From Candidatus Latescibacterota bacterium (lineage in GTDB: Bacteria > Latescibacterota > UBA2968): a DNA stretch of 64,000 bases. Below, in pieces: positions 17,901 to 37,698 of this stretch (positions within the stretch are counted from its first letter, which is position 1; each line of letters begins with the position of its first letter). The notes under the pieces are model-generated. The model saw nothing but the letters and a program-made list of their open reading frames with translations, was not told the DNA's origin and searched no databases. The position numbers and the translations under genes were made by a program. Location: NCBI GenBank assembly GCA_965198115.1, contig OZ240241.1, positions 4,512,001 through 4,576,000 on the forward strand, written 5' to 3'.

Positions 17901-18656
17901 GTCACCGTCCACGTCCGCCCAGCTGGACCCCGTCTGCAGGCTGTCGGCGAAAGCCAGATTGGACGTCCCCGCGTTGTCGACCAGCAGACCGGCGGTGTTG
18001 CGGTAGAGACGGTTGGCCTGCGCCTGGGCGAACCCGGAAAGAAACAGGTCCAAGTCCCCGTCGTTGTCGACATCGGCCCACGAGGGACTCGCGAAGTCCC
18101 CCGTCGTGATTCCGATCGCCGAAGCCGTATCCGAAAAACTTCCCGCGCCGTCGTTGATGTAGAGCGAAACGACGCCAGCCGAATCGACCAGGGTCAGGTC
18201 GAGATCGAGATCCCCGTCGTAATCGACCCACTGTGCATCGCCCCTCCAGCCGGCAGCCGGGATTCCGCTGCCGCCGATCACGTTCGTGAACGACCCGCCC
18301 CCGTCGTTCCGAAACAGCCCGGCCGCCGTCGAATCCGCCGAGAACAGGTCGAGCCTCCCATCCGAGTTGAAATCACCCCAGGCCACACCGGTCTGACCCA
18401 CGGCGAGCGGTCCCAATCCGGTTCGGGTGAAGACGATCCCGTTGTTCTGGAACAACACATCTGGACGTCCCCGAACCCCGAGGTAGAGATCGAGGTCGCC
18501 ATCCGCGTCCACGTCGACCCAAGAAACCCGCTCGACATCCCCGGGAACGGCCAGATTCAGGCTGAACGTCACATCGGTGAAAAATCGACCGTGGCTCGAG
18601 CCAGAGAGAGCGAAAAAGCCCAAGAAAGCCAGAATGAGCAGAGAAATCCGGTCCAT
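14833..18656 (-). CDS. Large secreted protein: 7 FG-GAP/VCBS repeats, ASPIC/UnbV, cohesin, three Ig-like repeats, dockerin, FlgD-Ig/CTD sorting domain (frameshift ~16345)
   Basis: Signal peptide; DxDxDGDLDL repeats; SIGARV...FGAG...WPSG; restoring one A joins the two ORFs; GDIDLNGSIQAFDA/ADVDGSSTITGFDA; NFPNPFNPET...WDGRD..G..VATGVYL. Confidence 0.85.
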
Positions 18657-18687
18657 GACCCCTTCAGCAGCTGAATCCTGCGCGCAC

Positions 18688-18771
18688 AAACAAAAAGGCA
18701 CCCCTATCTGCCGGTTTTCCCGACAGATAGAGGTGCCCTCCTTGGACACCAGAATGTCCTCCTTGGACACC
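18688..18771 (-). ncRNA. Candidate CsrA/RsmA-binding small RNA or leader with terminator
   Basis: Two GGTGTCC-AAGGA-GG(A/G)CA(T/C)(T/C) hairpins, then an 18-bp hairpin and a U-tract, directly downstream of a sigma70-like promoter. Confidence 0.55.
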
Positions 18772-18774
18772 GAA

Positions 18775-18803
18775 AAAGTATTGCATCGACCGATGAAAGT
18801 CAA
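18775..18803 (-). promoter_or_regulatory. Sigma70-type promoter
   Basis: TTGACT-17 nt-TACTTT. Confidence 0.6.
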
Positions 18804-18819
18804 TCGGCTATTCGTACCC

Positions 18820-20358
18820 CTACCGATCGACCACGACCCCTCGCGCCTCCAAAGCGGGGATCTGAGCCGTCAAAGCGACGTCGCTCAGAGGATTCGCCCG
18901 CACGTCGACGATGTCTCCCATCCCGATACCCTCGTTTTCGACGAGCGCCGATAGATCGCCGATCGCGTTATCTTCCAGCAGTACGTGCTCGAGATGGACC
19001 AAATCGGCGAGCGGTGACAGATCGGATATCTGGTTCTGTTGCAGCGCCAGGACCTCGAGCGACGGCATCGTGGACAACACGGAAAGGTCATCTACCGCGT
19101 TGCCGATCAGCGCGAGAGTCTCGAGGTGCTGGAAACCCGTGAGCGCAGAGAGGGTCGTCAGCTCGTTGTGGCGCAGGTCCAGATGCACCAGAGAGGTGAG
19201 CCCCGACAGAGGCGAGATGTCGTCGATCTCGTTGCTATTCAAACTGAGAAAAGTTAGCCCTGTCAGGGTCCCAAGGACGGAGACATCCGCAATCTGACAT
19301 CCTTCCAGCACGAGCTCCTCCAACGCGATGAGCCCCGCCAGCGACGTGAAATCGGTCACAGGGTTCGAGCTCAGATCCAGAGAGACGAGATCCGTCAGCG
19401 ACGCCAGATCGCTGATGTCCTCAACCTCGTTCATCACCAGACGAAGGGACGTCAGGGACATCCCCCGGAGTGGCGAGATATCCCGGATCCCGTTCGCATC
19501 GAGGTTGAGCGTCTTGAGCGCTCGGAGACGCGGCAGGACCGACAGATCGTCAACCTGATTGAAGGCAAGGTCCAAAAATGTGAGCACCCTGAGCCGACGC
19601 AGCGGAAACACTCGCTCTACTTCGTTGTGGTCGAGATCCAGGTGCCGGAGCGTCGTCAATTCCAACAGCGGAGAAAGATTCCCCACCCGGTTCTCCGTCA
19701 GAATCAGCGTGTCAAGCGACGCGAAGTGCTCCAAACCGTCGATCGAGACGAGATTTCGTCGCGGCAGGTCCAGCGTTGTCAGATCCGCCACATCCGAGGT
19801 CATCAGCTCTGAGCTCGAAACGCCGGCCAGTTCCCGCACGGTCAACGACAGCCCGTCATCATCCATAACAACGGGCACGTTCTCCCGTGCTCTCCCCCCG
19901 ACCCGCAGATAGAGCGCCTCCGTCGGCGTATTGAGCGGAATACTCCCCCACCGCCCCATCGCGCCGGTTACCGGATCGGTGGCCCGAAACTGGTAGTAAC
20001 CCGAAATACCGACCCGACGAAACGGTCCGTTCAGATCGTTCTCGATCACGACCGAAGCCAGGCCCTGTTCATTCGTCGTGGCCGACCACCCTTCGTCCGC
20101 GGACGTGCCCGAGACCGACCGCTCGACGACCACGACCCACCCCTGCGCAGGGAGACCCGCGTCCTTGACAGTCATCGTGAGCACTGCGCGTTGGGCGACC
20201 GCTGCGATTTTTCTGGCCGGCCCGGATAGCTTCTCTGTCTGTCCGGACGCATCTCCGTCCAACTGTGATCGCAACGGATTTACTTCGCCACAACCAATCA
20301 GAAGACCAGCAATGATGGCCGACAACCAGATGATCGATGCATGTATGTTGTGTTTCAC
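18820..20358 (-). CDS. Leucine-rich repeat (internalin-like) lipoprotein
   Basis: Lipobox LLIGC; tandem 22-aa LxxLxLxxNxIxDLxPL repeats. Confidence 0.9.
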   Translation of the reverse strand: MKHNIHASIIWLSAIIAGLLIGCGEVNPLRSQLDGDASGQTEKLSGPARKIAAVAQRAVLTMTVKDAGLPAQGWVVVVERSVSGTSADEGWSATTNEQGLASVVIENDLNGPFRRVGISGYYQFRATDPVTGAMGRWGSIPLNTPTEALYLRVGGRARENVPVVMDDDGLSLTVRELAGVSSSELMTSDVADLTTLDLPRRNLVSIDGLEHFASLDTLILTENRVGNLSPLLELTTLRHLDLDHNEVERVFPLRRLRVLTFLDLAFNQVDDLSVLPRLRALKTLNLDANGIRDISPLRGMSLTSLRLVMNEVEDISDLASLTDLVSLDLSSNPVTDFTSLAGLIALEELVLEGCQIADVSVLGTLTGLTFLSLNSNEIDDISPLSGLTSLVHLDLRHNELTTLSALTGFQHLETLALIGNAVDDLSVLSTMPSLEVLALQQNQISDLSPLADLVHLEHVLLEDNAIGDLSALVENEGIGMGDIVDVRANPLSDVALTAQIPALEARGVVVDR

Positions 20359-20413
20359 GGTGCGGGTCTTTGGATGCTATAGGTGTTCGGGGTTCGACTG
20401 CCAGGCTGACGAC

Positions 20414-20447
20414 AAAATGAAAGCGCCCGAACAGATGCCCGGGCGCC
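20414..20447 (-). terminator. Intrinsic terminator after smc
   Basis: GCGCCCGG...TTCGGGCGC hairpin followed by TTTCATTTT. Confidence 0.6.
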
Positions 20448-20475
20448 CCAGTGTCACAGTTACCGAACGGCTCGA

Positions 20476-23400
20476 TCAATCGTCCGCCGCGAGCTCTCCC
20501 GCTGTCATCGATCCCGGTCGCGCATCGTCCTGCTGCTCACTCAGTCGAACCGTCACGAGCTTCGACACACCCGGCTCTTCCATCGTCACGCCGTGAAGAC
20601 AGTCCGCAGCCTCCATGGTGACCTTGTTGTGGGTGACGATCAGGAACTGCGTATCCTTCGAAAATTCTCTGATGACACGCACGAACCGGGTTACGTTGGC
20701 GTCGTCGAGCGGTGCGTCTACCTCGTCGAGGATACAATAAGGACTGGGCTTGACGAGATAGATAGCAAACAGCAAGGCAATGGCGGTTAGCGCACGCTCT
20801 CCACCCGAGAGTAGATTGATGCTTTGAAGACGCTTGCCTCTCGGCCGGGCCGTGATCTGAATCGCCGCCTCGAGGGGATCCTCGTCGGGTGTCATAGTGA
20901 GATCGGCCTCTCCCCCTTCAAAGAACTTCGCGTACGTAATCTGGAAATTTTCCCGAATCTTGCCATAGGTTTCCAGAAACCGGGCGCGCGCTGTCCTGTC
21001 GATTTTCTGGATCGTTCGTCTCAACGTGTCTTCGGCTTCGAGAAGATCGTCCCGCTGCTTCGCCAGGAATTCATAGCGTTCCTTCTGAACCTCGTACTCC
21101 TCGAGCGCGGCCAGGTTGACCGCTCCCATGCGCCTGAGACGCTCCTGAATCTCGACGACCTTCTTGGATGAGATGTCGGCATTGAACTCTGGATCCTCCA
21201 GCCGGCCCATCTCCTTCAAGTCCAGGTCTCGCTCGGTCAACATTCGCGTATGAAGCTCCTCCGCGCGCGTCTTCAGCTCCGCCAGTCCGACCTCCAACTC
21301 GTGAAGCCGTTCACGACTTTTGGTCACCTTCCGCCTCTTTTCGCGCAGGTCCTCCTCCACGCCGCGGGACATCATCATCAATTCTTGCTGACTCTCGGCT
21401 TGCCGGTCCCGTTTCTCCTCGGCCTCTTTCTGCTTCGTGTGCAGCTGCTCGAGCTCTCCGCTCGCCGCCGCCACGTTGGCCTCGAGCTGCCCGCGTCGAT
21501 CTCGACTTTCCTCCGATTCCTGTGCCAGTCCGGATTTCTCCAGGTCGAGTGTTTCTGCCTCCTTCGACAGACGCAGGGCCTCCTGGCTCAATCGTTCGGA
21601 CCGCTCTTTCAGCGAAGCGACCTCGACGCGGTGGGCCGAAACGCGTTCGTGGACTTCGGCTCGGGTCCGCTCCGCGTTCGAAACGATCAGTGCGATCGCA
21701 CGTTCCGTCTCTTCCCGCACGAGTCGTCGGGCTTCAAGCGCGCGCAGTAGAACTCGTCCCTCCGCCAAACGCCGCTCGAACTCGGAGACGCGGTCATCCA
21801 GCCGAGCGTGTTCGTCGGCCAGCTCTTCAGCCGCCCGATCCTGGCGATCGGCCTCGACGCTGGCGTTCTGGTGATCCCTCTGCCTCACGGCGAGACGGTG
21901 TTTGAGGTCAGCGAGAACGTCATCGGCCGTCTCCAGACGCTCCGTGTAGGCTGCGAGTCGTTCGACGGCCATACGAATCTGCTGCTCCAGGTCATTCAGT
22001 TCCGCCCCTGCCGTCTCGACGGAGCCCGTGAGCGCTTCAATCTGCTGGTGACGTCCGATCAGACTCGTTTCCTCGCTACCCGAGGCACCCCCGAAAATCG
22101 TGCCGTCAGCCGCGAAAACCTCACCCTCGAGCGTGACACAGCCACAGCCACGGGCGCGAAACTCCGGGTACCAGACGAGAGCCGTGGCGGCATCGACTAC
22201 GACGAACGTGTTCCGCAGCAGACCGACGGCGGCGCCCAGATCGTCACCCTGTTGCTGAACCAGGTCGCTGGCTCGGCCGATGATCCCGTCCCCGATCGGG
22301 GGAGACCACGGTGTTCCCGACGCGTGCGTGATCCGGTCGGACGGCAGGAAGCCCGCAGCCCCGTGGTTGCCGTCCCGCAAGTAGGCCATGGCTTCGACCG
22401 CATCGTCCGTCGAATCGATCACCAGACAGTCGAGAGAACGACCGAGCGCCGCTTCGATCGCCCGAGCATACCTCGGTTCGACGCCCACCAGGTCTGCCAG
22501 GATTGCCCGGATGCGGCCCGCGAACGGGGAAGCATCCACGGCGAGCGCCTGAACACCGGCCGAATAGCCCTCGAACTGTTCTTCCAGCTTTCTGAGCAAA
22601 GCGAGGCGGGCCCGGTCGGCCTCCAGACGGCCTCGAAGTGCGACACGAGATTCGACGAGGGCGTCGCCCCGGATCTGACTGTCCTGCCGATCACGCGCCA
22701 GCGCGTCCCGATCGGCCTGCGCCTGGCTGATTCGAGTCTCCAGCGCCGCGATTTCGACTCCGGCTTCTTCGAGCACCGCCCGCGCCTCGACCCGACGTCC
22801 CTCCACACGGTCGACATCTTCGACGAGCCGTGATCGGCGTTCCCGCAATCCCTCGACTTCGGCCTTGCCACGCTCGAGAGAGGAAGATTGGCTATTGATC
22901 TCCTGCATGAGGGCGCGCGATCTCGACTGCTCGTCCTCCGACCGCGACCGATGGTCGTTCACCCGCTCGTTCAGATCCTCGAGCTCGGTGCCCTTGCGCT
23001 CGACCTCGGCCGTCACTTCGGACAGGCGACGCGCCGCATCCGTTGCTTCGGCGCTCGCGCCTTCGCTGTCCGTCAGCGCCGTCGACCTTCGTTCCGCTAG
23101 CTCACCACCTCGACGATCAGCGCGTGTGAGAAACCCGTCGATTCCACGGATCTCCTCGCGAGCCACGAGGATTGCCCGGTCTTTTTCGTGCACATATCCG
23201 ACCTGGCGACTCACGTCTGCATTCGCCGCTGCCAGCGCCTGGTCCTGCTCTGATAGCTCGGCTCGGATTTCCTCCAGACGCGCCTCCAGACGCGCCGAAT
23301 CGGTCGTGCCGACCTCGACCTCCTCCTTAAGGAAGGACATCTCGTCCAGCATGGGTCTTGATCGGTCCGACATTTCAAAATAGCGGTGCCGGGCAACCTG

Positions 23401-24081
23401 GACTTCGAGGGCTTGAAGCTCGTCCGTCAGCTGTTTGTAGAGACGCGCCTTCCGCTCCTGGCGCGCCAGCGACGTGACCTGTCTCTCCACCTCGCCGATG
23501 ATGTCGTCGATTCGGGTCAAATCTTGCTGGATGGATTGCAGCTTGTTCCACGCCGACCGTCGACGAACCTTGTATCGTGTCACCCCTGCTGCTTCTTCAA
23601 ACACGCGTCGTCGTTCTTCGGTCTTGTCGCTGATGATCTCATCGACCATGCCCTGCTCGATCACCGAGTAGGAATGGGCGCCCATCCCAGTGTCCATCAG
23701 CAAATTCTGAATGTCCCTCAGGAGGCACGGGATCTTGTTGATCAGGTATTCGCTCTCGCCCGATCGATACAAACGCCGCGCCACGGTCACCTCCGTGAAC
23801 TCGACCGGCAGGAGACGTTGCGAGTTGTCGATCGTCACCGAGACCTCGGCCAACCCCAGGGGCTTTCTGGACCGAGAACCCTGGAAGATAACGTCTTCCA
23901 TGTGACTGCTTCGCAGGGCCCGCGCTCGCTGCTCGCCCAGACACCAGCGAATCGCGTCGACCACGTTCGATTTGCCGCACCCGTTCGGTCCGACCACCGC
24001 AGTGATACCGTTTTCCAGCTTCAGGTCGAGCTTCTGCGCGAACGATTTGAACCCGAAGGCATTCAGTCGGGACAGATACAA
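20476..24081 (-). CDS. smc: Chromosome segregation protein SMC
   Basis: FKSFA, GPNGCGKSN, EEAAG, hinge, LSGGE and LDEVDAPLD; TTG start after GGAGG. Confidence 0.97.
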   Translation of the reverse strand: MYLSRLNAFGFKSFAQKLDLKLENGITAVVGPNGCGKSNVVDAIRWCLGEQRARALRSSHMEDVIFQGSRSRKPLGLAEVSVTIDNSQRLLPVEFTEVTVARRLYRSGESEYLINKIPCLLRDIQNLLMDTGMGAHSYSVIEQGMVDEIISDKTEERRRVFEEAAGVTRYKVRRRSAWNKLQSIQQDLTRIDDIIGEVERQVTSLARQERKARLYKQLTDELQALEVQVARHRYFEMSDRSRPMLDEMSFLKEEVEVGTTDSARLEARLEEIRAELSEQDQALAAANADVSRQVGYVHEKDRAILVAREEIRGIDGFLTRADRRGGELAERRSTALTDSEGASAEATDAARRLSEVTAEVERKGTELEDLNERVNDHRSRSEDEQSRSRALMQEINSQSSSLERGKAEVEGLRERRSRLVEDVDRVEGRRVEARAVLEEAGVEIAALETRISQAQADRDALARDRQDSQIRGDALVESRVALRGRLEADRARLALLRKLEEQFEGYSAGVQALAVDASPFAGRIRAILADLVGVEPRYARAIEAALGRSLDCLVIDSTDDAVEAMAYLRDGNHGAAGFLPSDRITHASGTPWSPPIGDGIIGRASDLVQQQGDDLGAAVGLLRNTFVVVDAATALVWYPEFRARGCGCVTLEGEVFAADGTIFGGASGSEETSLIGRHQQIEALTGSVETAGAELNDLEQQIRMAVERLAAYTERLETADDVLADLKHRLAVRQRDHQNASVEADRQDRAAEELADEHARLDDRVSEFERRLAEGRVLLRALEARRLVREETERAIALIVSNAERTRAEVHERVSAHRVEVASLKERSERLSQEALRLSKEAETLDLEKSGLAQESEESRDRRGQLEANVAAASGELEQLHTKQKEAEEKRDRQAESQQELMMMSRGVEEDLREKRRKVTKSRERLHELEVGLAELKTRAEELHTRMLTERDLDLKEMGRLEDPEFNADISSKKVVEIQERLRRMGAVNLAALEEYEVQKERYEFLAKQRDDLLEAEDTLRRTIQKIDRTARARFLETYGKIRENFQITYAKFFEGGEADLTMTPDEDPLEAAIQITARPRGKRLQSINLLSGGERALTAIALLFAIYLVKPSPYCILDEVDAPLDDANVTRFVRVIREFSKDTQFLIVTHNKVTMEAADCLHGVTMEEPGVSKLVTVRLSEQQDDARPGSMTAGELAADD

Positions 24082-24289
24082 CGCGTATCCTCCAGATACA
24101 TCCGGTGGCAGTGGGTGCGAGACACCGGCCTGCAAAACGCAGGCTTCGGACCCAGGGGCCAATGTGGAAAGCTGGACAGAGGAACTTAAAGGGGTTGGGG
24201 GGTGGTCGCCACGCTGGAATTGCCCGTGGGGTTAGGCATTCCGGCAGTGGGTACTACAAAGAGTATAAGAAAACCGATCAAGCTGTGAC

Positions 24290-24318
24290 ATAATACCCTA
24301 CCTGGTAGGTACGGTCAA
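24290..24318 (-). promoter_or_regulatory. Sigma70-type promoter for smc with a palindrome in the spacer
   Basis: TTGACC-17 nt-TATTAT; CCTACC-T-GGTAGG at 24297-24309. Confidence 0.6.
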
Positions 24319-24488
24319 GCCTCTTCTCGCAAACGAGAGCGGTCGGAGAGTCTACTTAAATTTCTAATTATCAAATGCTTGCTTCTATCTCTGTGCCCCG
24401 GAATAGCGCATTGCGTGTCCGAAGTCTGGTTGACTTCGGGGGCGGTCGTGTTTTAGCTTGGGAGGCTCGGATTCCAGGGGAGATCGTG

Positions 24489-25610
24489 ATGGACTTGACC
24501 GGAAAGATCGACCGAATCGAGAAAATCGTCCTCCGGTTCAAACGGCCCCGCCTCATAGGCAGGAACGCCCGCATCGGAGTCCACGGAGACACCGTCACGG
24601 ACCCGATCGTTCGAGTCCGCAGCTCGACGGGTGCCACGGGCGTGGGTTGGTCTCGCATCGAACAGGAAGATGCCCAGGACCTCGTGGGGCGTGAGGTGGC
24701 GAGCCTGATCGACGAGGAGGGCACGTCGGAGTCGGGAAAGCCGATCGACCTCCCTCTCTGGGACCTGGTGGCTCGGCAGTCCAACCAGCCGCTCTACGAG
24801 CTCCTCGGAGCGCGCGGAAACCGAGAAGTCGAGCTTTACGACGGATCGATCTACATCGACGATCTCGACGCGAACGACGAGGAAGCGGACGCCATCTTCC
24901 GCGAAGAAGTGGCAACGGGGCACCGCTACGGCTACCATAACTTCAAAATCAAGATCGGCAGAGGTGCACGCTGGATGCCCATCGTCGAAGGCACCGACCG
25001 TGACGTCCGCGTCATCCACACAATCAGGGAGGCGGCACGTCCCGACGCGAAGATTCTCATCGACGCCAACAACGGAACCACACTCAACATAGCGAAGGAC
25101 ATCCTCCTCCGATGTCGCGATGTCGACATCTACTGGTTCGAGGAGGCGTTTCCCGAAGATCGCTCCTTCAACGAGGCGTTCAAAGAATTCATCCAGGACG
25201 AAGGCTTCGACACGCTCGTCGCCGATGGCGAGTCGGGTCCCCCGCCGCCGTATTTCTTCGACATGGTCGAAGCGGGATGGATCGACATCGTCCAGCACGA
25301 CTTTCGAGCGGTCGGCCTGAGTTGGTGGCGCAAGACCGCCGACCGGATCGAACCGTGGGGGGCTCAATGCGCTCCGCATTGCTGGGGAAGTCTGCTCGAA
25401 CGCTATTCTCACGCGCATTTTGCGGCCTCGATTCCAAACTTTTCCCTGCTCGAGGCCGCACCCGCCGATACACCCGGCATCGTCCTCGACGGATGGGAGA
25501 TTCGCGAGGGCAGAATGATCGTACCCGACACGCCGGGCACCGGGTTCGATCTCGAACCGGAAGTGATCGAAAAAGGGGTGCGCGAGGAAGGCGGGTTCGC
25601 TCTATCCTGA
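24489..25610 (+). CDS. Mandelate racemase/muconate lactonizing enzyme family (enolase superfamily)
   Basis: LWDL..PLYELLG, KIKIG, IDAN, FEE, DGE and PH motifs. Confidence 0.88.
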   Translation: MDLTGKIDRIEKIVLRFKRPRLIGRNARIGVHGDTVTDPIVRVRSSTGATGVGWSRIEQEDAQDLVGREVASLIDEEGTSESGKPIDLPLWDLVARQSNQPLYELLGARGNREVELYDGSIYIDDLDANDEEADAIFREEVATGHRYGYHNFKIKIGRGARWMPIVEGTDRDVRVIHTIREAARPDAKILIDANNGTTLNIAKDILLRCRDVDIYWFEEAFPEDRSFNEAFKEFIQDEGFDTLVADGESGPPPPYFFDMVEAGWIDIVQHDFRAVGLSWWRKTADRIEPWGAQCAPHCWGSLLERYSHAHFAASIPNFSLLEAAPADTPGIVLDGWEIREGRMIVPDTPGTGFDLEPEVIEKGVREEGGFALS

Positions 25611-25743
25611 GACCAGGCCACCCACGGCAAGCCACAGAGTGATTCGTCTCTCGCCACTGTGTTGACGTCGTCTGCCCCGGTGGCACCGGTCGATGACCCC
25701 GTGCCCACATCCATCACCGTCACCGGCATCGCGACTGTCTGAC

Positions 25744-26898
25744 GTGCAGACCCTGCTCATCAAAAACGCCCACGTCTACGCCCCCGAAGATCTGGGTATC
25801 TGCGACGTGCTGTGTTTCGGACCGCACATACTCGACGTCGGGAAGGACGTGTGGCCCGTCGGAGATCCCGTCGTCGTGCAAGCCGAGGAGCGATCGCTCC
25901 TTCCCGGCCTCGTCGACAGCCACATCCACGTGATGGGAGCGAGCGGCGGCGCAGGCCCGACGCATCGATCACCCGAAATGCCGCTGTCGTGGATGACCCT
26001 GGCGGGGATCACGACCGTCGTCTCGCCCCTCGGCACCGACAGTCTCAGCCGGACGTTACCCGGCTTGTTGAGCCGAGCGGCCGCACTGACCGACGAAGGC
26101 ATCAGCGCCTACGCCTACACGGGTGGCTGGCGAAATCCAGTGCCCACGCTGACCGGCGACGTGCAGGCCGATCTTGCCTACATCGATCGATTCCTGGGCG
26201 TCAAGGTCGCGATTTCCGAAGCTTCGGCTCCTTCCTTGCCTCACGCCAGCCTGTGTGAATTGGCGCACGCCGCGGTCGTCGGTGGCGGCATCGGTGGCAA
26301 GCGGGCCGTGCTGCACGCCCATATTGGAGACCTCGATGCTGGCCTGTCACCCCTCCAGAGAGTCGCGGAAACCACGGGATTGCCCCCCGATCGGTTTGTG
26401 GCCACACACGTCAACCGCAACCCCGGGCTTTGGGAACAGGCAGCGGTTTTCGTGCGGGAGGGCGGAAGTATCGATCTGACTTCCCAGATTCAGAAGGATC
26501 GCGGGTATGCGAACGCCATCGAGCCAGATCGCGCGCTCCTGGAACTGTTAGACACCGACCTTCCCCGCGACCGAATCTCCGTGTCGAGCGACAGCGGGGG
26601 CGCGTATCCCCGCCCCGCCGACGCACGGCGTGGCCGATACGCCATGGCGGAGCCGATGACCCTCTTCGACAGCGTGCGTGCTGTCGTCCGACAGGGTGTT
26701 GGGTGGCCGACCGTCCTGCCTCTTGTCACGCAAAACCCCGCCAACCGCCTGGGTCTGGCGACGAAGGGACGAATCGAAGCCGGACGGGATGCCGATCTCG
26801 TTCTCCTCACGGACGAGGACGAAATCGAGCTGGTGTGGAGTCGTGGAAAGACCATGGTCGCCGACGGTGAAGCCGTCGTCCGGAGCGACTACGAATAA
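25744..26898 (+). CDS. Isoaspartyl dipeptidase (IadA)-like amidohydrolase
   Basis: IKNAHVYAPEDLG, DSHIH, LGTD, GVKVAIS, THVNR and SSD motifs. Confidence 0.8.
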   Translation: MQTLLIKNAHVYAPEDLGICDVLCFGPHILDVGKDVWPVGDPVVVQAEERSLLPGLVDSHIHVMGASGGAGPTHRSPEMPLSWMTLAGITTVVSPLGTDSLSRTLPGLLSRAAALTDEGISAYAYTGGWRNPVPTLTGDVQADLAYIDRFLGVKVAISEASAPSLPHASLCELAHAAVVGGGIGGKRAVLHAHIGDLDAGLSPLQRVAETTGLPPDRFVATHVNRNPGLWEQAAVFVREGGSIDLTSQIQKDRGYANAIEPDRALLELLDTDLPRDRISVSSDSGGAYPRPADARRGRYAMAEPMTLFDSVRAVVRQGVGWPTVLPLVTQNPANRLGLATKGRIEAGRDADLVLLTDEDEIELVWSRGKTMVADGEAVVRSDYE

Positions 26899-26917
26899 CT
26901 GCCTCGTAGGAGACTGA

Positions 26918-28124
26918 ATGGGAACATACAACGTCGCGGTCCTGCCCGGCGATGGCGTCGGCCCCGAGGTCGTCGCCGAATCGGTCAAGGTCCTGCTCGC
27001 TCTGGAGAAGCCTTTCCCGACCTCCGGTTCATCCTGAACGAACACCCCGTTGGCGCCGCGTGTTATCAGCGTACTGGATCGGACCTCCCTGCCGAGACAC
27101 TCGAGGCGTGTGATGTGGGTCGAGAAGATCACGCTCTTCCCGGCCTCCCTGCATCGGCGGATCATGTCGACGATCGTCCGTGAGGTGCCCACCGTCCACC
27201 GTGCACCGTCCACCGTCCACAGCTATAGCGCGCAGCTCCCGCAGCGCCGACGCCATCCTGTTCGGGTCGGCCGGCGATCCCAACATCCGCTTCGAGGACG
27301 GGACCGAAATCGCACCGCAACTCACCCTCCGATTCGTCCTCGACCTCTACGCCGGAATCCGCCCGATCAAACAATACGCCGGGGTCGCGCCGCTTCTCGC
27401 GGAAGACCCCCCGATCGACTACGTCATCATGCGCGAAAACACCGAAGGTCTCTACGCTTCGCGAGGGGCGGGTGTTCGCGTCGGCAACGACGTGGCCGTC
27501 GACAGCATGGTCATCACAAAGCGCGGAACGGAGCGCATCGCGAAGTACGCGTTCGACATCGCCGTGGAACGGACTGGCGCTCCCCGCGACGGTGTCAGCC
27601 GAGTCACGTGCGTCGACAAGGCAAACGTTCTCAAGAGCCAGGCATACTTTCGCGAAATCTACGATGGCGTAGCCGAAGGCTATCCCGATATCGAGCGCGA
27701 CTACGCCTACGTCGACGCGTTTACCGTACACCAGGTCCGGCGACCCGACTTCTACGACGTCGTCGCCGCCGAAAACATGTTCGGCGATATCATCTCGGAC
27801 CTGGGTGCGGGCACGATCGGTGGCATGGGTATGGCTCCGTCGGCGGACGTCGGCGATCGCTACGGCGTCTTCCAGCCCTCTCACGGAACCGCTCCCGATA
27901 TCGCGGGAGAAGGTATCGCCAATCCCGTCGCTCAGATCCTCTCCGCCTCGATGATGCTCACGTGGCTCGGCATGAAGAAAGATGACGAAGTAGCCCGGCA
28001 GGCGGCCAGACACATCGACGAAACGGTTGGACGGGTCCTCGAAAGCAAGACGTCCCATACCGCCGACGTGGGTGGCCAGGCCAGGACCGAACAGGTAGGC
28101 GACGCAGTGGCCTCAGAAATCTAA
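26918..28124 (+). CDS. Isocitrate/isopropylmalate/tartrate dehydrogenase family protein, interrupted by a frameshift (~27015) and a 128-nt insertion (27112-27239)
   Basis: VLPGDGVGPEV, ETLEAC|RSADAILFG, RENTEG, DKANV, NMFGDIISD and HGTAPDIAG. Confidence 0.85.
27189..27223 (+). repeat. Heptamer tandem repeat (CCACCGT), about 5 copies
   Basis: CCACCGT CCACCGT GCACCGT CCACCGT CCACAGC. Confidence 0.8.
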
Positions 28125-28135
28125 CGGAGGATGCG

Positions 28136-29458
28136 ATGAATCGGACGACGAAGAAGAACCGTGTCGACGAAGCGGTCAGATCCGAAGCGCACACCGCGCG
28201 CAAGCTGTCACGCACCATTCACGGTTTCGCGGAGCGACCCTTCCGCGAAACGGAGTCGGCCAAAGTGCTGGCCGAATACCTCGACGACCGTGGGTTCAAA
28301 ATCGAGTTTCCCTTCAAGAACATTCCTACGGCGTTCCGGGCGACGTATGGAAGCGGGAAGCCGGCCATCGGCCTGCTCGGCGAGTACGACGCACTGCCCA
28401 ACTGTGGTGCCGCCGACGGCAGCTGGGGTCACGGCTGAGGACATAACCTCCTGGGCGTTGCCCCGGCCGCAGGTGCGGTCGCCGCTGCCAAGATCCTCCA
28501 GAAATCCGGTCGCAAGGGTCGAATCATCTACTACGGTTGTCCCGCCGAAGAAACACTCGCCGGCAAGGTCTACATGGCCCGGGACGGTGCCTTCCGCGAC
28601 CTCGACGCCGTGCTGGCCTGGCATCCCGGAACGGCCACGGGTGTGAGCAACTTCGGCGGGTCGTCCCTCGACTCGCTCGTCTTCGAATTCCACGGCCGGA
28701 CCGCCCACGGCGCCAGCGCACACAATGGTCGTAGCGCCCTCGACGGCGTCATGCTCACGGACATCGCCGCGAACTACCTTCGCGAGCACATACCCGAAAA
28801 TTGTCGCATTCACAGCGTCATCAGAGACGGTGGAGACGCTCCCAACGTGGTGCCCGCCTACGCGAAGGTCTGGTATTTCGTACGGGGCAAGGACCGCGCC
28901 CAGGTCGACGAGCTCCGCGGGCGTCTGATCGCGTGCGCACGGGCGGCCGCCATCGCCACCGATACCGAAATGAAGTGGCATCGCATCACCGCCGTCTACC
29001 CGCGCCTGCCGAACGATCCCATGTGTAACCTCGTGGCCGACAATGTCGGGCTCTTCGGTCCTCCCCGCGCGACCAAAGCAGACCGAACTGTGGTGACGAA
29101 ACTCGGCTACAAAGAGGGGTTCGACACCTCGGTCACGAAGGGATACGGCACGCAGGGGCGTGGATCGTCGGACGAGGACAACGTGTCGTGGCTCGCCCCG
29201 ATGGGTCGATTTACGGTCGTTTGCTACGCGAAGGGGACGCCCGGGCATCACAGGGACCTGGCAGCGCAGGCCATCCTGCCGTTCGCCGACCGGGCGATCA
29301 TTCAAGCCGCAAAGATCTTCGCGGGCTCCGCGCTCGACCTCGTCACCAAACCGGACCTCCTCCGGAAGGCAAGATCCGAGTTCCAGAGGAAAACCCGTGG
29401 TTTCACTTACGACCCGTTGATCCCCAAACGTCAAAAAGTGCCGGCCGATCCTCCGTAG
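28136..29458 (+). CDS. M20 amidohydrolase (AbgB/p-aminobenzoyl-glutamate hydrolase B-like) with in-frame TGA at 28436-28438, candidate selenoprotein
   Basis: PTAF, GEYDAL, GHG*GHNLLG, GCPAEE, WHP, GRSALD, PNVVP and GSSD all lie in one frame. Confidence 0.85.
28446..28474 (+). promoter_or_regulatory. Candidate bacterial SECIS element
   Basis: 17-nt hairpin CCTGGGC-GTT-GCCCCGG begins 11 nt after the TGA; lower stem ACCT/AGGT. Confidence 0.5.
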
Positions 29459-29467
29459 GGGAAGACG

Positions 29468-30457
29468 ATGGAGCCCAAAAGACTGATCTGCCCCGATGTG
29501 CGAAAGATCGAGGTCGAATCATTCGATCTCGACCCGCTTCCTCCTGACGGAATCCTCGTGGAAAACCACTACACGGCCGTATCCGTCGGCACGGAGGTCT
29601 ACAACTGGCTCCACGGTGGCGAGCCGGGAGGAAATCGCCGCTTCCCACGGACGACCGGTTACTGCAACGTCGGCCGCGTACTCGAAGTGGGAGCCGACGC
29701 CGATGGTGTCAAGATCGGAGACATCGTCGCCGGGCAGAGCAACCACGCCAGCCACGCCGTACTCCGGGCCAACTTCAACCTCGTACCGAGCGATGTCGAT
29801 CCGAGGGAGGCCGCTTTTACCGTCATGTGCGCGATCGCGCTCCACGGCGTTCGGGTCGCGCGTGTTGGCCTCGGCGAGTCGGTCGTCGTCTACGGGTTGG
29901 GTCTTGTCGGACAGATCGCTGCCAAGCTGGCTCGTCTGTCGGGCGCGATGCCCGTCATCGGCATAGACCTCGACACGTTCAGGATCGAGAAGGCCATCCA
30001 CAATGGTTGTGACATCGCCCTCAATCCGAATCAGATCGAAGATCTGGAGGGCGAGATCCGGCGCCTTTCCACGGAGGACGGCGTCAACATCGTCCTCAAG
30101 TCGACCGGCAAGCCCGAAGTGTATCCGACCGCGGTCGAACTGGCCTGCCTCGGAGGTCGTGTCGTTGCCCTCGGCTCACCGCGCGGCACCGTGACGATGG
30201 ACTTCCTCAAAGACGTCCACTTGCGTGAAGTCTCGATCCTCGGCGCACACCAGCCCAAGACCCCGGACGACGACCACATCTACTATCGGTTCTACAAGAA
30301 GCGAGAGCGGGATTTGGTCCTCCAACTCATGGCCACCGACCGGCTCGACATCGAAAGCCTCATTACCCACACGCATCGACCCGAAGCCTGCCAGGACGTC
30401 TACACATCGCTGGCAGATCGACCGGAAAACACGCTCGGTGTCCTGTTCGAGTGGTGA
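29468..30457 (+). CDS. Medium-chain (zinc-binding) alcohol dehydrogenase family protein
   Basis: SVGTE, GYCNVG, GLGLVG Rossmann motif and LITH. Confidence 0.88.
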   Translation: MEPKRLICPDVRKIEVESFDLDPLPPDGILVENHYTAVSVGTEVYNWLHGGEPGGNRRFPRTTGYCNVGRVLEVGADADGVKIGDIVAGQSNHASHAVLRANFNLVPSDVDPREAAFTVMCAIALHGVRVARVGLGESVVVYGLGLVGQIAAKLARLSGAMPVIGIDLDTFRIEKAIHNGCDIALNPNQIEDLEGEIRRLSTEDGVNIVLKSTGKPEVYPTAVELACLGGRVVALGSPRGTVTMDFLKDVHLREVSILGAHQPKTPDDDHIYYRFYKKRERDLVLQLMATDRLDIESLITHTHRPEACQDVYTSLADRPENTLGVLFEW

Positions 30458-30470
30458 GCGGATCCTCCCC

Positions 30471-32874
30471 ATGCCACCGAAGGCACCTTCCCTGCCAACA
30501 TCACGCAAGGTCCCGACTGACGCCCTGACCATCGTCCTCGTCGCTTGCCTCATTCTCCTCACGCAACAATGGGTATCGGTTCCCAAACTATGGCCTTCTA
30601 TCCCCCAGACGCTTCGGTTCAACAGCGTCCCGGACTACGTAACCGCCCTTGCCTCCCTCCCATGGTCATCACTGGACCGGTCACTCACGTTGGCGTTGTT
30701 CGGTCTCTTTGTCGCCCTCCTGATCCGTCAACAGCAACAGAATAGTGCGACTCGCCTGATCGCCGCTGTCGTGTCGTCCGAAACCCGCACGCGCTGGGCG
30801 GTGATTCTGGGCGGCTTCATCGTCGCTCGCTACTACTTCGCGTTCGGTGACCTGACCTGGACCGCGGACGCAGCCTATCACACGCTCTACGCGTGGATCA
30901 CCGGCGAGGCAATGGCTACTGGTACCCTGCCGGTCTGGACGCCTCTCGTCGCCGCCGGAACACCCTTCTTGCAGTTTTATGGGTTCGTCTTCTTCTACCT
31001 CTCCGGTGTCGTCTACTTTCCCCTCCGCGACATCGACACCACCCTCAAGCTCGTATTGGGCGGGGCGCACATCGCCTCCGGCATCACGCTCTACCTGCTG
31101 TGCCGGGAGTGGACACAGAGCCGCAGAGCCGGCATCCTGGCCGCGGCCGTCTACGTGCTGACCTTCTGGCACACACAACAGATCATCGTCATGGGGCGTT
31201 ACCCCGTCAGTCTGGTCTACGCCCTGCTGCCGTTGCCCTTCTGGGCACTCTCGCTCGCGGCTAGACGTCGTTCCTGGCTCAAGCACGCGTTCTGCAGCGG
31301 GACGTGTCTGGCGCTCATCGTCCTGACACACCCGGGGTATGGCATCTGGACCGGATTTTTCCTGGTCTTGTTCGCGAGCACGCTCTTGATCCTGCACGTC
31401 GCCCGAAGATCGAGAGTGGCTAAAGCGAGCACGGTCGCCGTGATCGTCTCGCTCGTCCTGTCGTCGGTTCTGACGGTGCCGCTTCTGCTCGAGGGCGATG
31501 AGACGTATCTGCAATCGGGCTTCTCTCTGTCCGCACTCCCCGACCCCACACTCTCCCAGATTCTTCTCTGGTCCAACTACAACGCAAGCCTCTCAGGCGG
31601 TGATGACGCGACACACAACTGGTACGGAGGATACGTCGGCCTGTCTGCCGTCCTTCTATCCCTCGCTGGACTCGGGACCATCATCCGTGGTCGCGCAGGC
31701 CGGTATCCGGCAGTGGCAACCTGGTTCACGACGGGGGAGCGGGACTCTCGCTGATTCTGATGTTCGGGTATCGCTGGCCGATCGTGGAAAGCCTTCCGTT
31801 CGTTCAGCTGCAGAACGCTGGGAGATACGAGCTCTTCCTCGTCTTTTTCCTCGCGCTGTTGGCTGGGCTGGCCGTAAAACCGCTCGCGCGGTTAGCCAGT
31901 TGCCGCCCCACGACCGCCCTTGCTCTGGGCCTCCTGATCGTCACGGTCGACCTCCTCCCGACCACGTTCCGCCAACCGTATCATTTCACGACTCCACAGA
32001 CCATGGCGCGGGTTTCCGACGGGCTCTACGGTCGACTCTACGGACAGGCGAACCGCCTGATCCGATCAGACGCGTTTCCGCCCGAGCGACTGATTCATGT
32101 CGAGCCCCCTCGGAATGGCATCCTGGTCGCCAATACGCGGACCCCGACTATTGCGTGCGTCTACGTAGAACACACACGCGCCGCGGACCAGTTCCTCAGA
32201 CCCCTGATTCCGTTGGTCAGACGCGTGGTCCTGCAGCACGCCCACCATCTCAACGCGTGGCTCGCCACGGACCCCGCCCAGACGCTCCTCGACGCGCTCT
32301 ACCTGACCGGCACACGCTACCATCTCACGCCCATCACACAGAACGAAACCCACAGGGGCACGGTCGAGCTGACCCTGAGTGACTATAGCCCAATCGTGCT
32401 CGCCACCGAACTTCGACCGACACCGCCTCTTCCCGTGGGTGATGAAACAGCCCTGCTCGAACTCGTCGAACGGATGAAAATCGACCGAACCACGCATACG
32501 GCCGAGTATATCCCCACAGTCGCCATAGAAACCACGCTTCCTGGTTCCGATGAATCTCTGACGTTAGACCTCCGTGAGAACACCGTCTATCTCGACCGTG
32601 TCATCTGACGGCATCCGTCTCCCTGACCTGCTTTGCTCGCCTCGCCTTCGGCTACTACTCAGGACTCACCATTCGCATTAACGGTAAGCTTACCGAAGCG
32701 ATCCCCACGGCCGATGGGTTCGTCGCAATCCGGCTCGATCGGGGTGAAAACATCATCGAGATCTCGGGTAGCCTGTCAACATTGCGGAAATCTCTTTGGA
32801 CCGGTGTAGCCGTCTTTTTAGCCGCGCTTGCCACGTGGTTTTACCGTATGCGTCCGCCTGCAGCTTCACGTTGA
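30471..32874 (+). CDS. Polytopic membrane protein, GT-C/YfhO (PTPS-related)-like; frameshifts ~31730 and ~32605
   Basis: PVWTP..AGTPFLQFYG and YVG motifs with many TMs; C-terminal beta domain (INGK...RGENIIEI) plus a final TM in a third frame. Confidence 0.65.
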
Positions 32875-32900
32875 GTCAAGCCATCGAAAGGAGTCGTTCC

Positions 32901-34399
32901 TTGTCCACGCACCCCAACGTTCTGTTCATCCATAGCGACGAGCACTCTTTCCGATATCTCTCCGCCCGTTCCCGGGATCGGGGTGGCGAGCCCTGTCACA
33001 CACCCACGCTCGATGGCCTGATCGCTCGGGGAACGCATTTCGACGCGGCCTACTGTCAGATGCCCCTGTGCACACCCAGTCGAATCGCCATGTTGACTGG
33101 TCGTCATTCCCATCGGTGTGGCGCCTGGAGCAATGCATCGGTGTTGCCCCCGGAGCTTCCGACCTTCGGGTCTCATTTTCGGGAGAACGGGTTCGCCACG
33201 GCGACCGTCGGCAAAATGCATCTCGGGGGCTGCCTTCAAACAGCCGGGTTTGGCGATCGTCCCTACTGTGACTTCGGAGGACCGTGCGCTCACCAGCCCG
33301 ATCCCCTGTCGGCCGACGGCGGAATGCGCTCTCGAACGCTCGACGTTGGAGTCAGCGACGTTCCGGAGGCTCTGTTACAGGAGAACGTTGTCGCCCGAAC
33401 GGCAGTATCCTGGGCACGAGAGCAGAGACATCGCGATCCAGATCAGCCCTGGCTGCTCTACACGTCCTTCAGCCGGTCGCACTTTCCCCTCACGGCTCCT
33501 CGGCGTTTTTTTGACCGCTACTATCCCGAGGGCGTCACGCCACCCCGCGTCGGACGCACGGGTGACAGCGCGGATCATCCGATGACACTCGGTGCCGTCG
33601 CGGGATTCCAGACCGAAGCGATCGAGCCAGCGGAAGGACGAAGGGCACGCGCCGCTTACTTTGCCGCGGTCGATTGCCTGGACGAGATTCTGGGTGACTT
33701 CCTCGCAGTGATGGAGCGAGACGAGCTGCTCGAAAACACCATCGTCGTCTACACCTCAGACCACGGCGAACTCGCCGGCGAGCACGGGTTGTGGTGGAAA
33801 AACACGTGGCACGAAGGTGCCTCACGCGTTCCCCTCATCGTATCCCTGCCCGAGCACCGAAGGGGCGAACGCACCGCCCACGAGGTCACGGATCCGTCCA
33901 GTCTGGAGATCTCTTTCCAACCCTCTGCGGTCTTGCTTCGATCTCTCGGCCCGAAGGTCTCGACGGCATCGACCTTGTGCCGCGCTCGATGCACGTCCTG
34001 GCGTGATCACGGAGGCTCTGGCGCCCCGGTGGGGGGAAGGCACCGAATTCAGGATGCTGAGGACCCGGACCCACAAATACGTGGCGTTCAGAGGAAGCCA
34101 CGACCTCTGTTTCGACCTCGAGACGGATCCGGATGAGCAAAGAAGACGGGCGATGAAATGGCCGACTTACGGGACCACCTGCTGGGAGGATTCAGCTTCG
34201 ACGAGGCTGATCTGAGGAGGCAACAGGAGACAAAGGAGAGAAAGACCCGATACGCTGCCCGCTTCCAGGCTCGAACGCCCAATCAGATCGTGCTCGGAGA
34301 TGGCCGTCTCGTCGAGGCCGACTCGCCGCTCTCCACCCAGAAGTTCTGAGCGACGACCTGGACCGTGACCTGGATGACTGGCGCGGATCGGCGTCTTAA
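32901..34399 (+). CDS. Sulfatase (choline-sulfatase-like); several indels after ~33900
   Basis: PNVLFIHSDEH, CTPSR, GKMH, SDHGE, WWK and RVPLI. Confidence 0.85.
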
Positions 34400-34559
34400 C
34401 AAACAGTTCCCTCGTGCAGTCCTGAGCGGAGTCGAAGGGACGAGGGCGAGCGGGCGCGTATTGTGTTTCGTAAAGAACAAGACGTTGCGCTCGTGCCTCG
34501 CACAGGCAGGTGACGCCAGCATCCGGATGCCCACGATTTTCCAGCTGGCCACCGCAGTA

Positions 34560-34940
34560 TCAAAAATCGGGCTGGGCAAATACCTTGTCAAGCTCTTCAG
34601 TCAGGCGGTCGACGCGGATGGGTTTGGCCAGCACCGACCAAACGTCCAGACCCTTCACCTGGTTCAAGACGTCCTGCTGGACATACCCGGATACGATGAT
34701 CACCGGTGTCAGAATGCCGCGGTCGCGGATGAACTTCAGGAACTGATGGCCGCGCGCCCCAGGCATGTGGATGTCGAGGAGGATGAGATCGACCTCATTT
34801 CCCTGGAGCGCCTCGATAGCCTCTCGGGCGTTGCCGGCCTGGAGACATTGATGGCCGAGGGATTCCACAATCTCGACGATCATCTCCCGGATGGGCAGGT
34901 CATTCTCTACGGATAGTATCGTATGGCCAGTGCTCGCCAT
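34560..34940 (-). CDS. Single-domain response regulator
   Basis: VEND, LLDIHMP, SGY and KP motifs. Confidence 0.9.
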   Translation of the reverse strand: MASTGHTILSVENDLPIREMIVEIVESLGHQCLQAGNAREAIEALQGNEVDLILLDIHMPGARGHQFLKFIRDRGILTPVIIVSGYVQQDVLNQVKGLDVWSVLAKPIRVDRLTEELDKVFAQPDF

Positions 34941-35191
34941 GGGTTCCTCGTGGTTCGGACGCTAGTGAAAATAGGACGAAGCGTCTCTATCGACAAGATG
35001 CCCCCTACGCCGGTCGCACGAACCCGGTTCATTTCGTGAGCGTTCTAGACCCGCGTAATCGTCGATTCCGACACGGTGCCTCCTTCTCGTGGGTTTTCGC
35101 CCGAAACCGCAAGAACGGCACGTTTCAGGACAAAGAAAATACCCCCGAGAACCGACCTCGAAGGTAAAATCATCCAGCGACTGACGTCGAC

Positions 35192-36106
35192 CTAAGCTTG
35201 CTTGATCACGACGAAACTGACATCATCCTCGGGTCGTGCGAAGGCCGTAAGATCCCTGCGAATCGCATCGAAAATCTCCTGCGCCGACCCGTCCTTAGTT
35301 GCCCGAAGTACGTCTTCGAGATGCGTCGGAAAGTAACCTTCTTCTCCACGGGCGTGCTCGTATAGGCCGTCGGTGTAGAGCAGCATCGTGTCACCCGACC
35401 CGATCAGATCGAGCTCGTTCACCCGATAGGGATCCTTGTAGCCGAGCACGCTGCTGTTCGTTCGTCTGTCGATGTCGTCGCCCGAGGGAAGCGTGCCGAT
35501 CGGCGGGAAGGTCCGCTGCTCAGGCACATCGACAATCCTGTCGAACCGTCTCGAAAAAATGACAGGCATGGGATGAGCGGCCGAGATGAAGCGGAAGGTC
35601 CCGTCGTCGTCGATCTCGCCATACAGCATCGTCAGGAACTTGCTCACACTGGAGGAATTGTAGAAGCGCGTGTTGAGGTTCTCGAACAGCTGCTCCGTAA
35701 CCGTCCCGTGATAATCCAGCTCGTATATCACCCCGAGCAAAAACGCCTGGTGAAGCATGGCGGCAAGGAGCGCATCCGTAATCTGGTGTCCGGACACGTC
35801 GGCGATGGCGATCCCCGCTTTGTGGCGACACCGTTCCAGCCGCCGAGCCACTTTGTCGCGACCCTCCTCCTTCGCTTGCCGGATTCTGGCATCGAGATCG
35901 TAGCGCCTGCTGAAGTCCACATACAGGATGTGATCTCCCCCTACGATCCCGTTCAGCGGTATCGTTTCGCCATAGATGTCGAGCCCAGGCAGCTTCGGGA
36001 GCTCTCCAGCCATAGGCTTGATATATTGGGCGATCTCCTGAAAATTCTCGAGCTCGCCCGTGAGTTGTCTGACGGAAGTTCGGATGTCGCCGAGGATGTC
36101 TTCCAT
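35192..36106 (-). CDS. PP2C/SpoIIE-family serine phosphatase
   Basis: GGD, ADVSGH, YTDGL and EDD motifs. Confidence 0.9.
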   Translation of the reverse strand: MEDILGDIRTSVRQLTGELENFQEIAQYIKPMAGELPKLPGLDIYGETIPLNGIVGGDHILYVDFSRRYDLDARIRQAKEEGRDKVARRLERCRHKAGIAIADVSGHQITDALLAAMLHQAFLLGVIYELDYHGTVTEQLFENLNTRFYNSSSVSKFLTMLYGEIDDDGTFRFISAAHPMPVIFSRRFDRIVDVPEQRTFPPIGTLPSGDDIDRRTNSSVLGYKDPYRVNELDLIGSGDTMLLYTDGLYEHARGEEGYFPTHLEDVLRATKDGSAQEIFDAIRRDLTAFARPEDDVSFVVIKQA

Positions 36107-36216
36107 AACCCTAATTTGTTAGAAATCCTGATTGTGAACCAGAATGTATTTAAGATACGATAATATACATCGCTCCGGTAGATCGTGGATGTGAATCAGG
36201 TCACACCCCGAAAAAC

Positions 36217-37688
36217 CTACTCTCGATAAGTCGTTGCCCAATGCTCCATCCGCTGGTCTTCGTGAGCCATTCGCCATCTCAGCAACCGCTGACAGCACTC
36301 GGTCACGACCGCGTCGTGCCCCGGATCCTGAGCCAGGTTCACTATCTCATTCGGATCAGCCTGCAGATCGTAGAGGAGCGGCCGCATCGTCGAGTCCGCA
36401 AACTGGACATACTTGTGGTGTTCGTCTCGGATCACCCAGAGCAAGCACCGATCGGGATCGATCCCGTCGACCGGCCTGAAGTCTTTCTCGTAGTGAATCT
36501 CACGCCTTCCTTCCGTCGTCGCCCCCGTCAACTGCGGCCATAGACTGGCTCCCTGGACTCTATCCGGAATCTCCACGTCCAACGCATCGAGAACCGTCGG
36601 CGCGATATCGATCGACTCCACGAAAGAGGAAATCGTAACGCCACGCGTCACATCCGCCTCGGGCGCCGGGTCCCTCACGATCAGGGGCACGCGCATCGCG
36701 CCATCGTAAAAGTGCCCTTTCCCCGTCAGGTAGTGATCGCCCAGGTATTCGCCGTGGTCCGAGCTGAACACGATCGTCGTGTGCTCCCCTCCCACTGGCC
36801 GGTCTTCTTCAGCGCCTCGAACAACAGCCCGAGCGAGGTGTCCACCTCCGTAACCATCCCGTAGTAGTTCGCCTGGGTCTCACGAAGATCGCGATCCTCG
36901 ACGAGCTCAGGGCGTGCGTGAATACCTTTCAAGTACGGATGGTCGTCCGACAGTTCTCCCGAGTCTCGTGAGGGGGGCGGCATATCTCGGGGATCGTACA
37001 TATCGTGGAACGGAGCTGGACAGATTCTCGGCGGATGCGGTTTGATGTAGTTCACGTTGAGCATCCACGGCGCATCGATGTGGTCTTGGACGAAATCCAC
37101 CGCCTTGTTCGTCAAAAACCGACACTCCGAATCTTCGGCCGTATAGTGTGCCGGATACCGAAGAGGCAGGTGGTCGCCCGGACCTTCGTCGGGTACGTTC
37201 GGCGCGTGGATGGCACCGTGGCTGAGCAGCCGCTCCGCGTAGCCCCGCTCGCGCAGGAACTCGAAATACTCGGGGCTGTCGAACTCGTGGTAGACAATCG
37301 TGTCGAACCCCGGCAAGACATTGTCGTAGCTGAGGCTCCGTCTACGTGGATCGTCGTGCGGCAACGTCCGCGGATCGACGGCGTAGTCGTTGTAGCCAAG
37401 CAGGTGGGGTGCATAGCCCGCTTCACGCAGCCAGGTGGGTAGACTGTCCTCCGCATCGACCAGGGGTGTCTTGTTGTTCACGGCCCGATGCGAACACAGA
37501 TAACGCCCTGTGTAAATGCACATCCGGCTCGGGCCGCAAGGCGCCGTCTGAACGAAGCAGCGGTCGAATCGCGTACCTTCCGCTGCCAGTGCATCGAGGT
37601 TGGGGGTTCGCACGACCGGGTGGCCGGCGCAACCGAGTGCGTCCGCACGCCACTGATCCGCGATCAGAAACAGGAAATTCTTCCGCAC
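36217..37688 (-). CDS. Sulfatase/phosphonate monoester hydrolase-like protein (frameshift ~36790)
   Basis: DQWRAD, CGPSR and PHPP, then SDHGEYLGDH..GK in the next frame. Confidence 0.88.
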
Positions 37689-37698
37689 GACCGTCTCC

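Follow-up and report, generated by a model that had tools for sequence, protein, structure and literature searches.

In a window of 64,000 nucleotides from a Candidatus Latescibacterota bacterium (the whole stretch of DNA analysed here), the gene at 28136-29458 on the + strand is an intact gene for a metal-dependent amidohydrolase of the M20D family. Its UGA at codon 101 very probably codes for selenocysteine (Sec), and it is very likely that this Sec occupies the metal-bridging position of the hydrolase. The gene would then represent, as we consider likely, a new Latescibacterota-wide family of hydrolases with a selenolate-bridged binuclear centre, natural cysteine (Cys) counterparts and a decoding signal of two hairpins.

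The reading frame runs from the ATG at 28136 to the TAG at 29458, with a Shine-Dalgarno-like GGAGG (28126-28130, + strand) 5 nt ahead of the ATG, and comprises 440 codons, giving a product of 440 aa once the internal TGA is read through. The product scores 189.8 bits against TIGR01891 (curated cut-off 153.75), which places it in the M20D family, and also matches PF07687; of its 8 hits in NCBIfam none is a selenoprotein model. The best match in both sequence and fold is HmrA of Staphylococcus aureus (PDB 3RAM, E 2.4e-43), a carboxydipeptidase of M20D in MEROPS. An AlphaFold model with Cys placed at position 101 and no metal reached a pLDDT of 95.2, and Foldseek aligned this predicted structure with HmrA at TM 0.82/0.92 and an rmsd of 2.0 Å (E 3.2e-36), indicating, together with PF07687, the fold of an M20 catalytic domain with its dimerisation domain. 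We describe the gene as M20D amidohydrolase/carboxydipeptidase-like.

The TGA (28436-28438, + strand) sits in W-G-H-G-*-G-H-N and is the sole internal stop of the gene; the statement of the original prediction that it is the only disruption, with both halves in one frame, is borne out by the sequence. At 28438 the contigs show TGA, not TGC or TGT. Two runs of one sample, perhaps the one that the window comes from, yielded contigs with 0 differences from it over 27900-29700 and, in overlapping pieces that span 18000-37900 and include the frameshifted upstream neighbour, again 0 differences, at odds with the earlier caveat that the window is error-rich. Because the organism's own genome holds other nonsense-interrupted genes, a lone stop would prove nothing; what carries the case is conservation.

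One TGA is present in 49 of the 50 matches at ≥68% identity that 61 relatives gave, and in 55 of 56 such matches from all 168 genomes of the phylum, while 20 weaker matches in the latter set (36-46% identity) have no stop. The search for homologues with TGA/Cys pairs at this column, proposed with the original prediction, thus returned both forms: TGA in the close orthologues and Cys elsewhere. Pattern scans widened the sample. The GTDB scan gave 84 hits, of which 30 are not in M20 genes and 54 are. Of these 54, 52 belong to the TGA clade; most are labelled Latescibacterota, a few Gemmatimonadota or unclassified bacteria, and a single one Planctomycetota. In metagenomes, 35 of 37 hits were in M20 genes, 32 of them in the TGA clade, and 2 were not M20. 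After removal of duplicates, of matches shorter than 380 residues and of one distant singleton (L174, described below), genomes and metagenomes together yielded 77 distinct TGA orthologues, which are kin and are not counted as independent. Codon 101 is TGA in 77/77 of them, with 0 other stops, and the 14 further columns scored in the active site and motifs (D85, C90, H99, H103, C135, E138, E139, H163, H191, D346-D348, H371 and H372) are invariant throughout. Mean protein identity to the gene is 68% before the TGA and 74% after it, and 63-67% of four-fold third bases differ. At the TGA column, Cys is found in all 99 full-length homologues among 120 protein-database hits and in 146 of 150 distant representatives. 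The gene thus shows the pattern by which bacterial selenoproteins are recognised: the UGA is in frame, it falls in a column where Cys is conserved, and more than one genome has the TGA.

The same data bear on a true stop, by which the gene would be a pseudogene, carry a sequencing error, or be split into a 100-aa peptide and a separate C-terminal protein. The other interrupted genes of the genome and the frameshift in the upstream neighbour are in keeping with such decay, and gene callers do give C-terminal pieces of 294-336 aa that start after the TGA column (21/120 database hits). Nevertheless, the TGA is never swapped for TAA or TAG across the orthologues, the contigs are identical, a split would remove the bridging ligand, and the synonymous freeze downstream of the TGA (see below) would be left unexplained, which makes a true stop extremely unlikely.

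Few TGA forms lie outside the clade: the GTDB scan gave 2 (of its 54 M20 hits) and the metagenome scan 3 (of its 35). L074 has further stops and L153 one further stop, L163 lies at a contig end, and L141/L207 is full length; selA was not found for L074 or for L141/L207. These forms, L174 excepted, are probably single, nonsense events. L174 (L174:1105-2622) is a distant AbgB-like gene of 35% identity on a gut metagenome contig, with TGA at the same column, otherwise intact and full length. A hairpin with a G in its loop follows at spacing 20, and the TGA of L174 marks either an independent Sec form or a nonsense mutation. In a sample of 401 Planctomycetota genomes, 9 matches in 8 genomes contained no stop; for Chloroflexota, two samples of 401 genomes that overlap for the most part gave 27 and 5 pattern hits, 0 of them in M20 genes, and none of 19 further pattern hits in the organism's own phylum was an M20 gene.

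The genome encodes the machinery that Sec insertion requires. The selA gene (3.8e-143), selB (above cut-off) and a tRNA-SeC are clustered near 3.585-3.590 Mb, and selD is present with a TGA of its own at its known Sec motif, so that selA, selB, selC and selD, which the original prediction had proposed to look for, were all found. FdhA likewise carries TGA at its known Sec motif. Decoding of the UGA as Cys, or as a mixture of Sec and Cys, by the Sec machinery or by a suppressor tRNA would make the product an ordinary Cys enzyme. Cys is indeed the family residue, full-length Cys proteins are nested among the TGA forms, and a few bacteria are known to insert Cys at UGA by means of a Sec-type machinery. 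Against this stand the tRNA set, in which ARAGORN found 74 tRNAs and only one with a UCA anticodon, called SeC, beside canonical selA and selB, and the TGA codons of selD and FdhA at known Sec motifs; we regard Cys decoding as very unlikely. The occurrence of in-frame TGA in several genes could also point to a variant code with UGA read as Trp or Gly. TGA, however, is the main stop of the genome (947 of 1692 long coding frames end with it), four Trp columns are TGG in 77/77 orthologues, and the column of codon 101 is Cys in homologues, leaving this reading a negligible probability. Taken together, the conserved TGA, its pairing with Cys, the Sec machinery and the use of TGG for Trp mean that the readings as error, pseudogene or recoded Trp fail.

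Across genomes, selA was found in 48 of 49 that carry the TGA gene; in the remaining one, G020 (91% complete, 430 contigs), neither selA nor selB was found. Both were also not found in G059, the one close genome with TGC at the codon (86% complete). In a test of five among six further TGA genomes, selA was found in three and selB in two. Because selA occurs in 57 of the 61 relatives whether or not the gene is present, co-occurrence is a necessary condition rather than proof.

The organism's own genome looks rich in selenoproteins. An in-frame TGA was seen in 7 of 15 matches to AhpC/TSA (G000:C1 3251421, 6232016, 3586006, 4086278, 5943269, 121169 and 7692308); 6 of these genes have a SECIS-like hairpin at spacing 17-21, and one lies between selB and tRNA-Sec. 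For a genome-wide selenoproteome, a dicodon coding model was too blunt, missing both this gene and selD. Of 184 aligned stops, a scan of paralogues for Cys/stop pairs marked at least 8 as TGA/Cys and at least 3 as TAG/Cys candidates, most of which are noise; further TGA/Cys pairs from it, at G000:C1 221372, 834534, 817830 and 7295865, include what we take to be rhodanese-like and arsenate-reductase-like motifs. A single TAG flagged in EF-Tu is its normal stop. Separately, 20 tRNA genes were seen within 2 kb on one strand at G000:C1 2870558-2872531.

Downstream of the TGA, third codon positions hardly vary between +18 and +39. At every one of the 7 four-fold sites in codons 107-114 a single base accounts for 87-100% of the sequences, and at four of them for 100% (77 orthologues), while the 122 four-fold sites elsewhere in the gene have a median of 52%, with 4 at ≥85% and none reaching 98%. 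The TGA is followed by a constrained RNA element, which extends to about +47 and takes in two hairpins. As an observation apart, the contig of another organism from the same runs matches at ≥90%, among the pieces listed, only at 28423-28479, showing that the stretch with the TGA and the hairpins is an island of DNA-level conservation.

Hairpin A, the likely SECIS (CCTGGGC-GTT-GCCCCGG, 28450-28466, + strand), begins 11 nt after the TGA; it is the 17-nt hairpin of the original prediction, present where it had been claimed. Its 4-bp core GGGC/GCCC spans 28453-28463 and its loop GUU lies 18 nt after the UGA. The SECIS minihelix of the E. coli fdhF type has a bulged U in its upper stem. The likeness to fdhF asserted in the original prediction holds for the position of hairpin A but not for this feature, as U(+14) faces C(+26) in a 1x1 mismatch with no bulge; hairpin A resembles the fdhF minihelix loosely, and its conservation is equalled or exceeded by that of a second hairpin. 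The core pairs of hairpin A are invariant in 46/46 distinct orthologous sequences, 9 of the 46 cannot form the outer pair +12/+28, and one orthologue has the loop ACA, without G. Its folding energy is -7.9 kcal/mol in this gene; across the 77 orthologues it is -7.5 kcal/mol or better in 26, weaker in 27 and not scored in 24. Hairpin B (28464-28481, + strand), the second conserved element, has a 7-bp stem with the loop AGGU 32 nt after the UGA, an energy of -13.5 kcal/mol and 99.7% of cells paired in the 46 sequences, and it passes -7.5 kcal/mol in 77/77 orthologues. Compared with shuffled sequence, the z-scores for hairpin A (-0.21 to -0.81 for three stretches and +0.84 for the longest) support no hairpin alone.

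Under our own implementation (not bSECISearch) of the consensus bacterial SECIS rule, taken from PMC13188914, hairpins A and B both pass in this gene, and the RNAalifold consensus predicts both. A loop at spacing 17-21 is found in this gene and in 8 of the 9 other candidate Sec genes of the genome; among the controls, 600 Cys codons gave 23 and 600 TGA stops 12. This shared spacing favours hairpin A as the SECIS. Among Cys-coded genes, 2 of 26 have a passing hairpin at spacing 17-21. Because B-like hairpins occur in some Cys-coded, GC-rich homologues, hairpin B may partly follow from the peptide. Covariation is slight, with one double-change pair per structure in 3-4 sequences, and a third, long-hairpin alternative fold has 98.7% of its cells paired, so that covariation cannot choose between the structures. 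A search of Rfam over 27900-29700 with E up to 1 gave 0 matches. Within the element, hairpin A is the most likely target of SelB.

The role of residue 101 can be predicted from the M20D enzyme N-AGA, in which Cys105 bridges both zinc ions, held also by His107, Glu141, His168 and His370, as described in PMC7209930; the Cys bridge is also stated in PMC11511702. With the mapping made by alignment and spacing, the TGA/Cys column fits Cys105 of N-AGA, in agreement with the metal-ligand role first proposed for it. Counted from codon 101, H103, E139, H163 and H371 lie at +2, +38, +62 and +270; the corresponding offsets from Cys105 are +2, +36, +63 and +265 (PMC7209930). The N-AGA ligands were mapped by motif and spacing, and residue-level alignments were made with HmrA, PM20D2, ILL2 and YxeP, not with 6SLF. 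The predicted metal ligands are thus His103 (28442-28444, N-AGA His107), Glu139 next to the predicted general base Glu138 in the M20D EE motif (28547-28552, Glu139 matching N-AGA Glu141), His163 (28622-28624, N-AGA His168) and His371 (29246-29248, N-AGA His370), all on the + strand. All five residues are kept in 77/77 orthologues, His371 also in 143 of 150 distant sequences, and they complete the M20D ligand set provided that the UGA is read as Sec or Cys. Sec101 is accordingly a predicted replacement of the zinc-bridging Cys.

Alternatively, simple metal bridging might not be the main role of Sec101, which could instead be a redox switch, a nucleophile or one partner of a selenenyl-sulfide, for example with Cys90. 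Cys90 (28403-28405, + strand) is invariant in the 77 orthologues and in the subfamily alignment and is replaced by L/M/V/I in the distant family; an SSDED motif stands in place of a GSTD(V)G-type motif; and most known selenoproteins are redox proteins. Yet Cys90 is just as invariant in 98 Cys-coded homologues, the remaining metal ligands are all present, and the modelled fold is HmrA-like. A mainly redox role is unlikely, and a metal bridge remains the preferred reading.

HmrA and the gene product have in common EYDALP, H-x-C-G-H, PAEE, the HP motif and the dimerisation domain, with HmrA Cys93 at the position of the TGA. HmrA is, however, only 28% identical, and the gene product differs from it by a 7-residue insert with Cys90, the SSDED motif and a C-terminal extension; its substrate is not transferable. 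HmrA-type M20D enzymes prefer Met-X dipeptides, according to PMC9486568. Human PM20D2, a beta-alanyl-lysine / Xaa-Arg dipeptidase (7YH4, 8XZC), shows the same motifs (E 1.5e-32, TM about 0.80/0.88) at 25-26% identity and has Cys at the TGA column. More distant is N-AGA/CsAga, an N-alpha-acyl-glutamine aminoacylase (6SLF) from another M20D branch, with a sulfur bridge, 18-20% identity, E 2.8e-9 to the family profile and TM 0.67/0.74. Homologues carry the automatic JGI label AbgB-like (p-aminobenzoyl-glutamate utilisation B), and such paralogues are 36-46% identical to the gene. AbgB, subunit B of p-aminobenzoyl-glutamate hydrolase, is encoded with abgA and abgT; both are absent among the annotated neighbours in the window and from the recurrent clusters of 38 loci (flanks of 1.5-3 kb).

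Several neighbours recur in these 38 loci. Downstream lies a zinc-binding dehydrogenase gene (29468-30457, + strand, PF00107), whose cluster is a neighbour in 26 loci, and upstream a LeuB/tartrate-dehydrogenase-like gene (26904-28124, + strand, start approximate, PF00180), a neighbour in 24. The latter is in three frames here and in one frame in relatives; because the same letters stand in the contigs of the same sample, this split looks like strain decay, not error. An isoaspartyl dipeptidase (IadA)-like gene (25693-26898, + strand; TIGR01975 325.5 bits, just below the cut-off of 331.25) occurs in the window and in 4 further loci. An M19 membrane-dipeptidase gene (L035:393-1592 and homologues) follows the Sec gene in 14 of the 38 loci, and a beta-lactamase-fold hydrolase precedes it in 6. 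Our best guess is that the enzyme serves catabolism as a dipeptidase or an aminoacylase.

FastTree, run on 191 sequences, put the 77 TGA forms into a single group that also holds five nested Cys proteins, and left Cys forms outside it. This topology suggests a gain of Sec from Cys followed by some reversions, with the stem of the TGA clade lacking a support value and the number of gains and losses not fixed by the tree. Two database proteins of 294 aa, P0124 and P0128, are members of the 90%-identity clusters of the Cys-coded P0006 and P0008 and start at the same Met as the calls truncated by the TGA; this is a hint that Sec and Cys forms exist at 90% identity or closer, and contig edges could give rise to the same picture.

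Taken together, the data suggest how the enzyme might be made and might work. SelB with Sec-tRNA would bind a hairpin just after the UGA, most likely A, perhaps with the assistance of B, and in the absence of selenium the product would end after 100 aa. In the full-length product, Sec101 would bridge two divalent ions, with His103, Glu139, His163 and His371 as their further ligands, and Glu138 would activate a water molecule for attack on an amide bond. The substrate may be a dipeptide or an N-acyl amino acid, the weakest step of this scheme, proposed because HmrA and PM20D2 are the closest structures and dipeptidase genes recur alongside. From general selenium chemistry, the benefit of selenium could be a bridge that resists irreversible oxidation or a tuning of the metal site; the five Cys proteins nested among the Sec forms indicate that selenium is not indispensable.

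Our literature searches turned up no M20 enzyme with Sec; a listing in subscription papers or supplements is possible. Table 1 of a 2026 review (PMC13188914) has 119 prokaryotic selenoprotein families and no row for M20, a peptidase or an amidohydrolase; the words 'hydrolase', 'peptidase' and 'M20' are absent from the main text. The nine new families of the deep-Sep paper include no M20 enzyme, and the selenoprotein literature covered here does not describe Sec as the bridge in any binuclear hydrolytic centre. By the review, FdhA, [NiFeSe] hydrogenases, HgcA, SaoL, UshA-like and CTP-synthase-related proteins share decoding by UGA, SECIS and SelB and have Sec for a conserved, sometimes metal-binding Cys, none of them being an M20 peptidase. 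In FdhA and [NiFeSe] hydrogenases, the two for which the text describes ligation, Sec binds the metal of a redox centre, in contrast to the hydrolytic site here. The original prediction had called a Sec metal ligand in a hydrolase unusual; this stands in that the enzyme is unlisted among the 119 families of the table, and needs qualifying in that metal-binding and non-redox Sec is not unprecedented elsewhere.

Databases hold such genes as fragments of 294-336 aa without the bridging ligand, an annotation that is corrected here, and the selenoprotein inventory would gain one family. The question of why selenium is used over sulfur is usually argued from redox enzymes. The predicted Sec at a two-metal hydrolytic bridge is a place without expected redox chemistry, and the natural Cys versions at 70-75% identity would allow a selenium and a sulfur bridge to be compared in one scaffold, a comparison that could cover rate, metal preference and resistance to oxidation.
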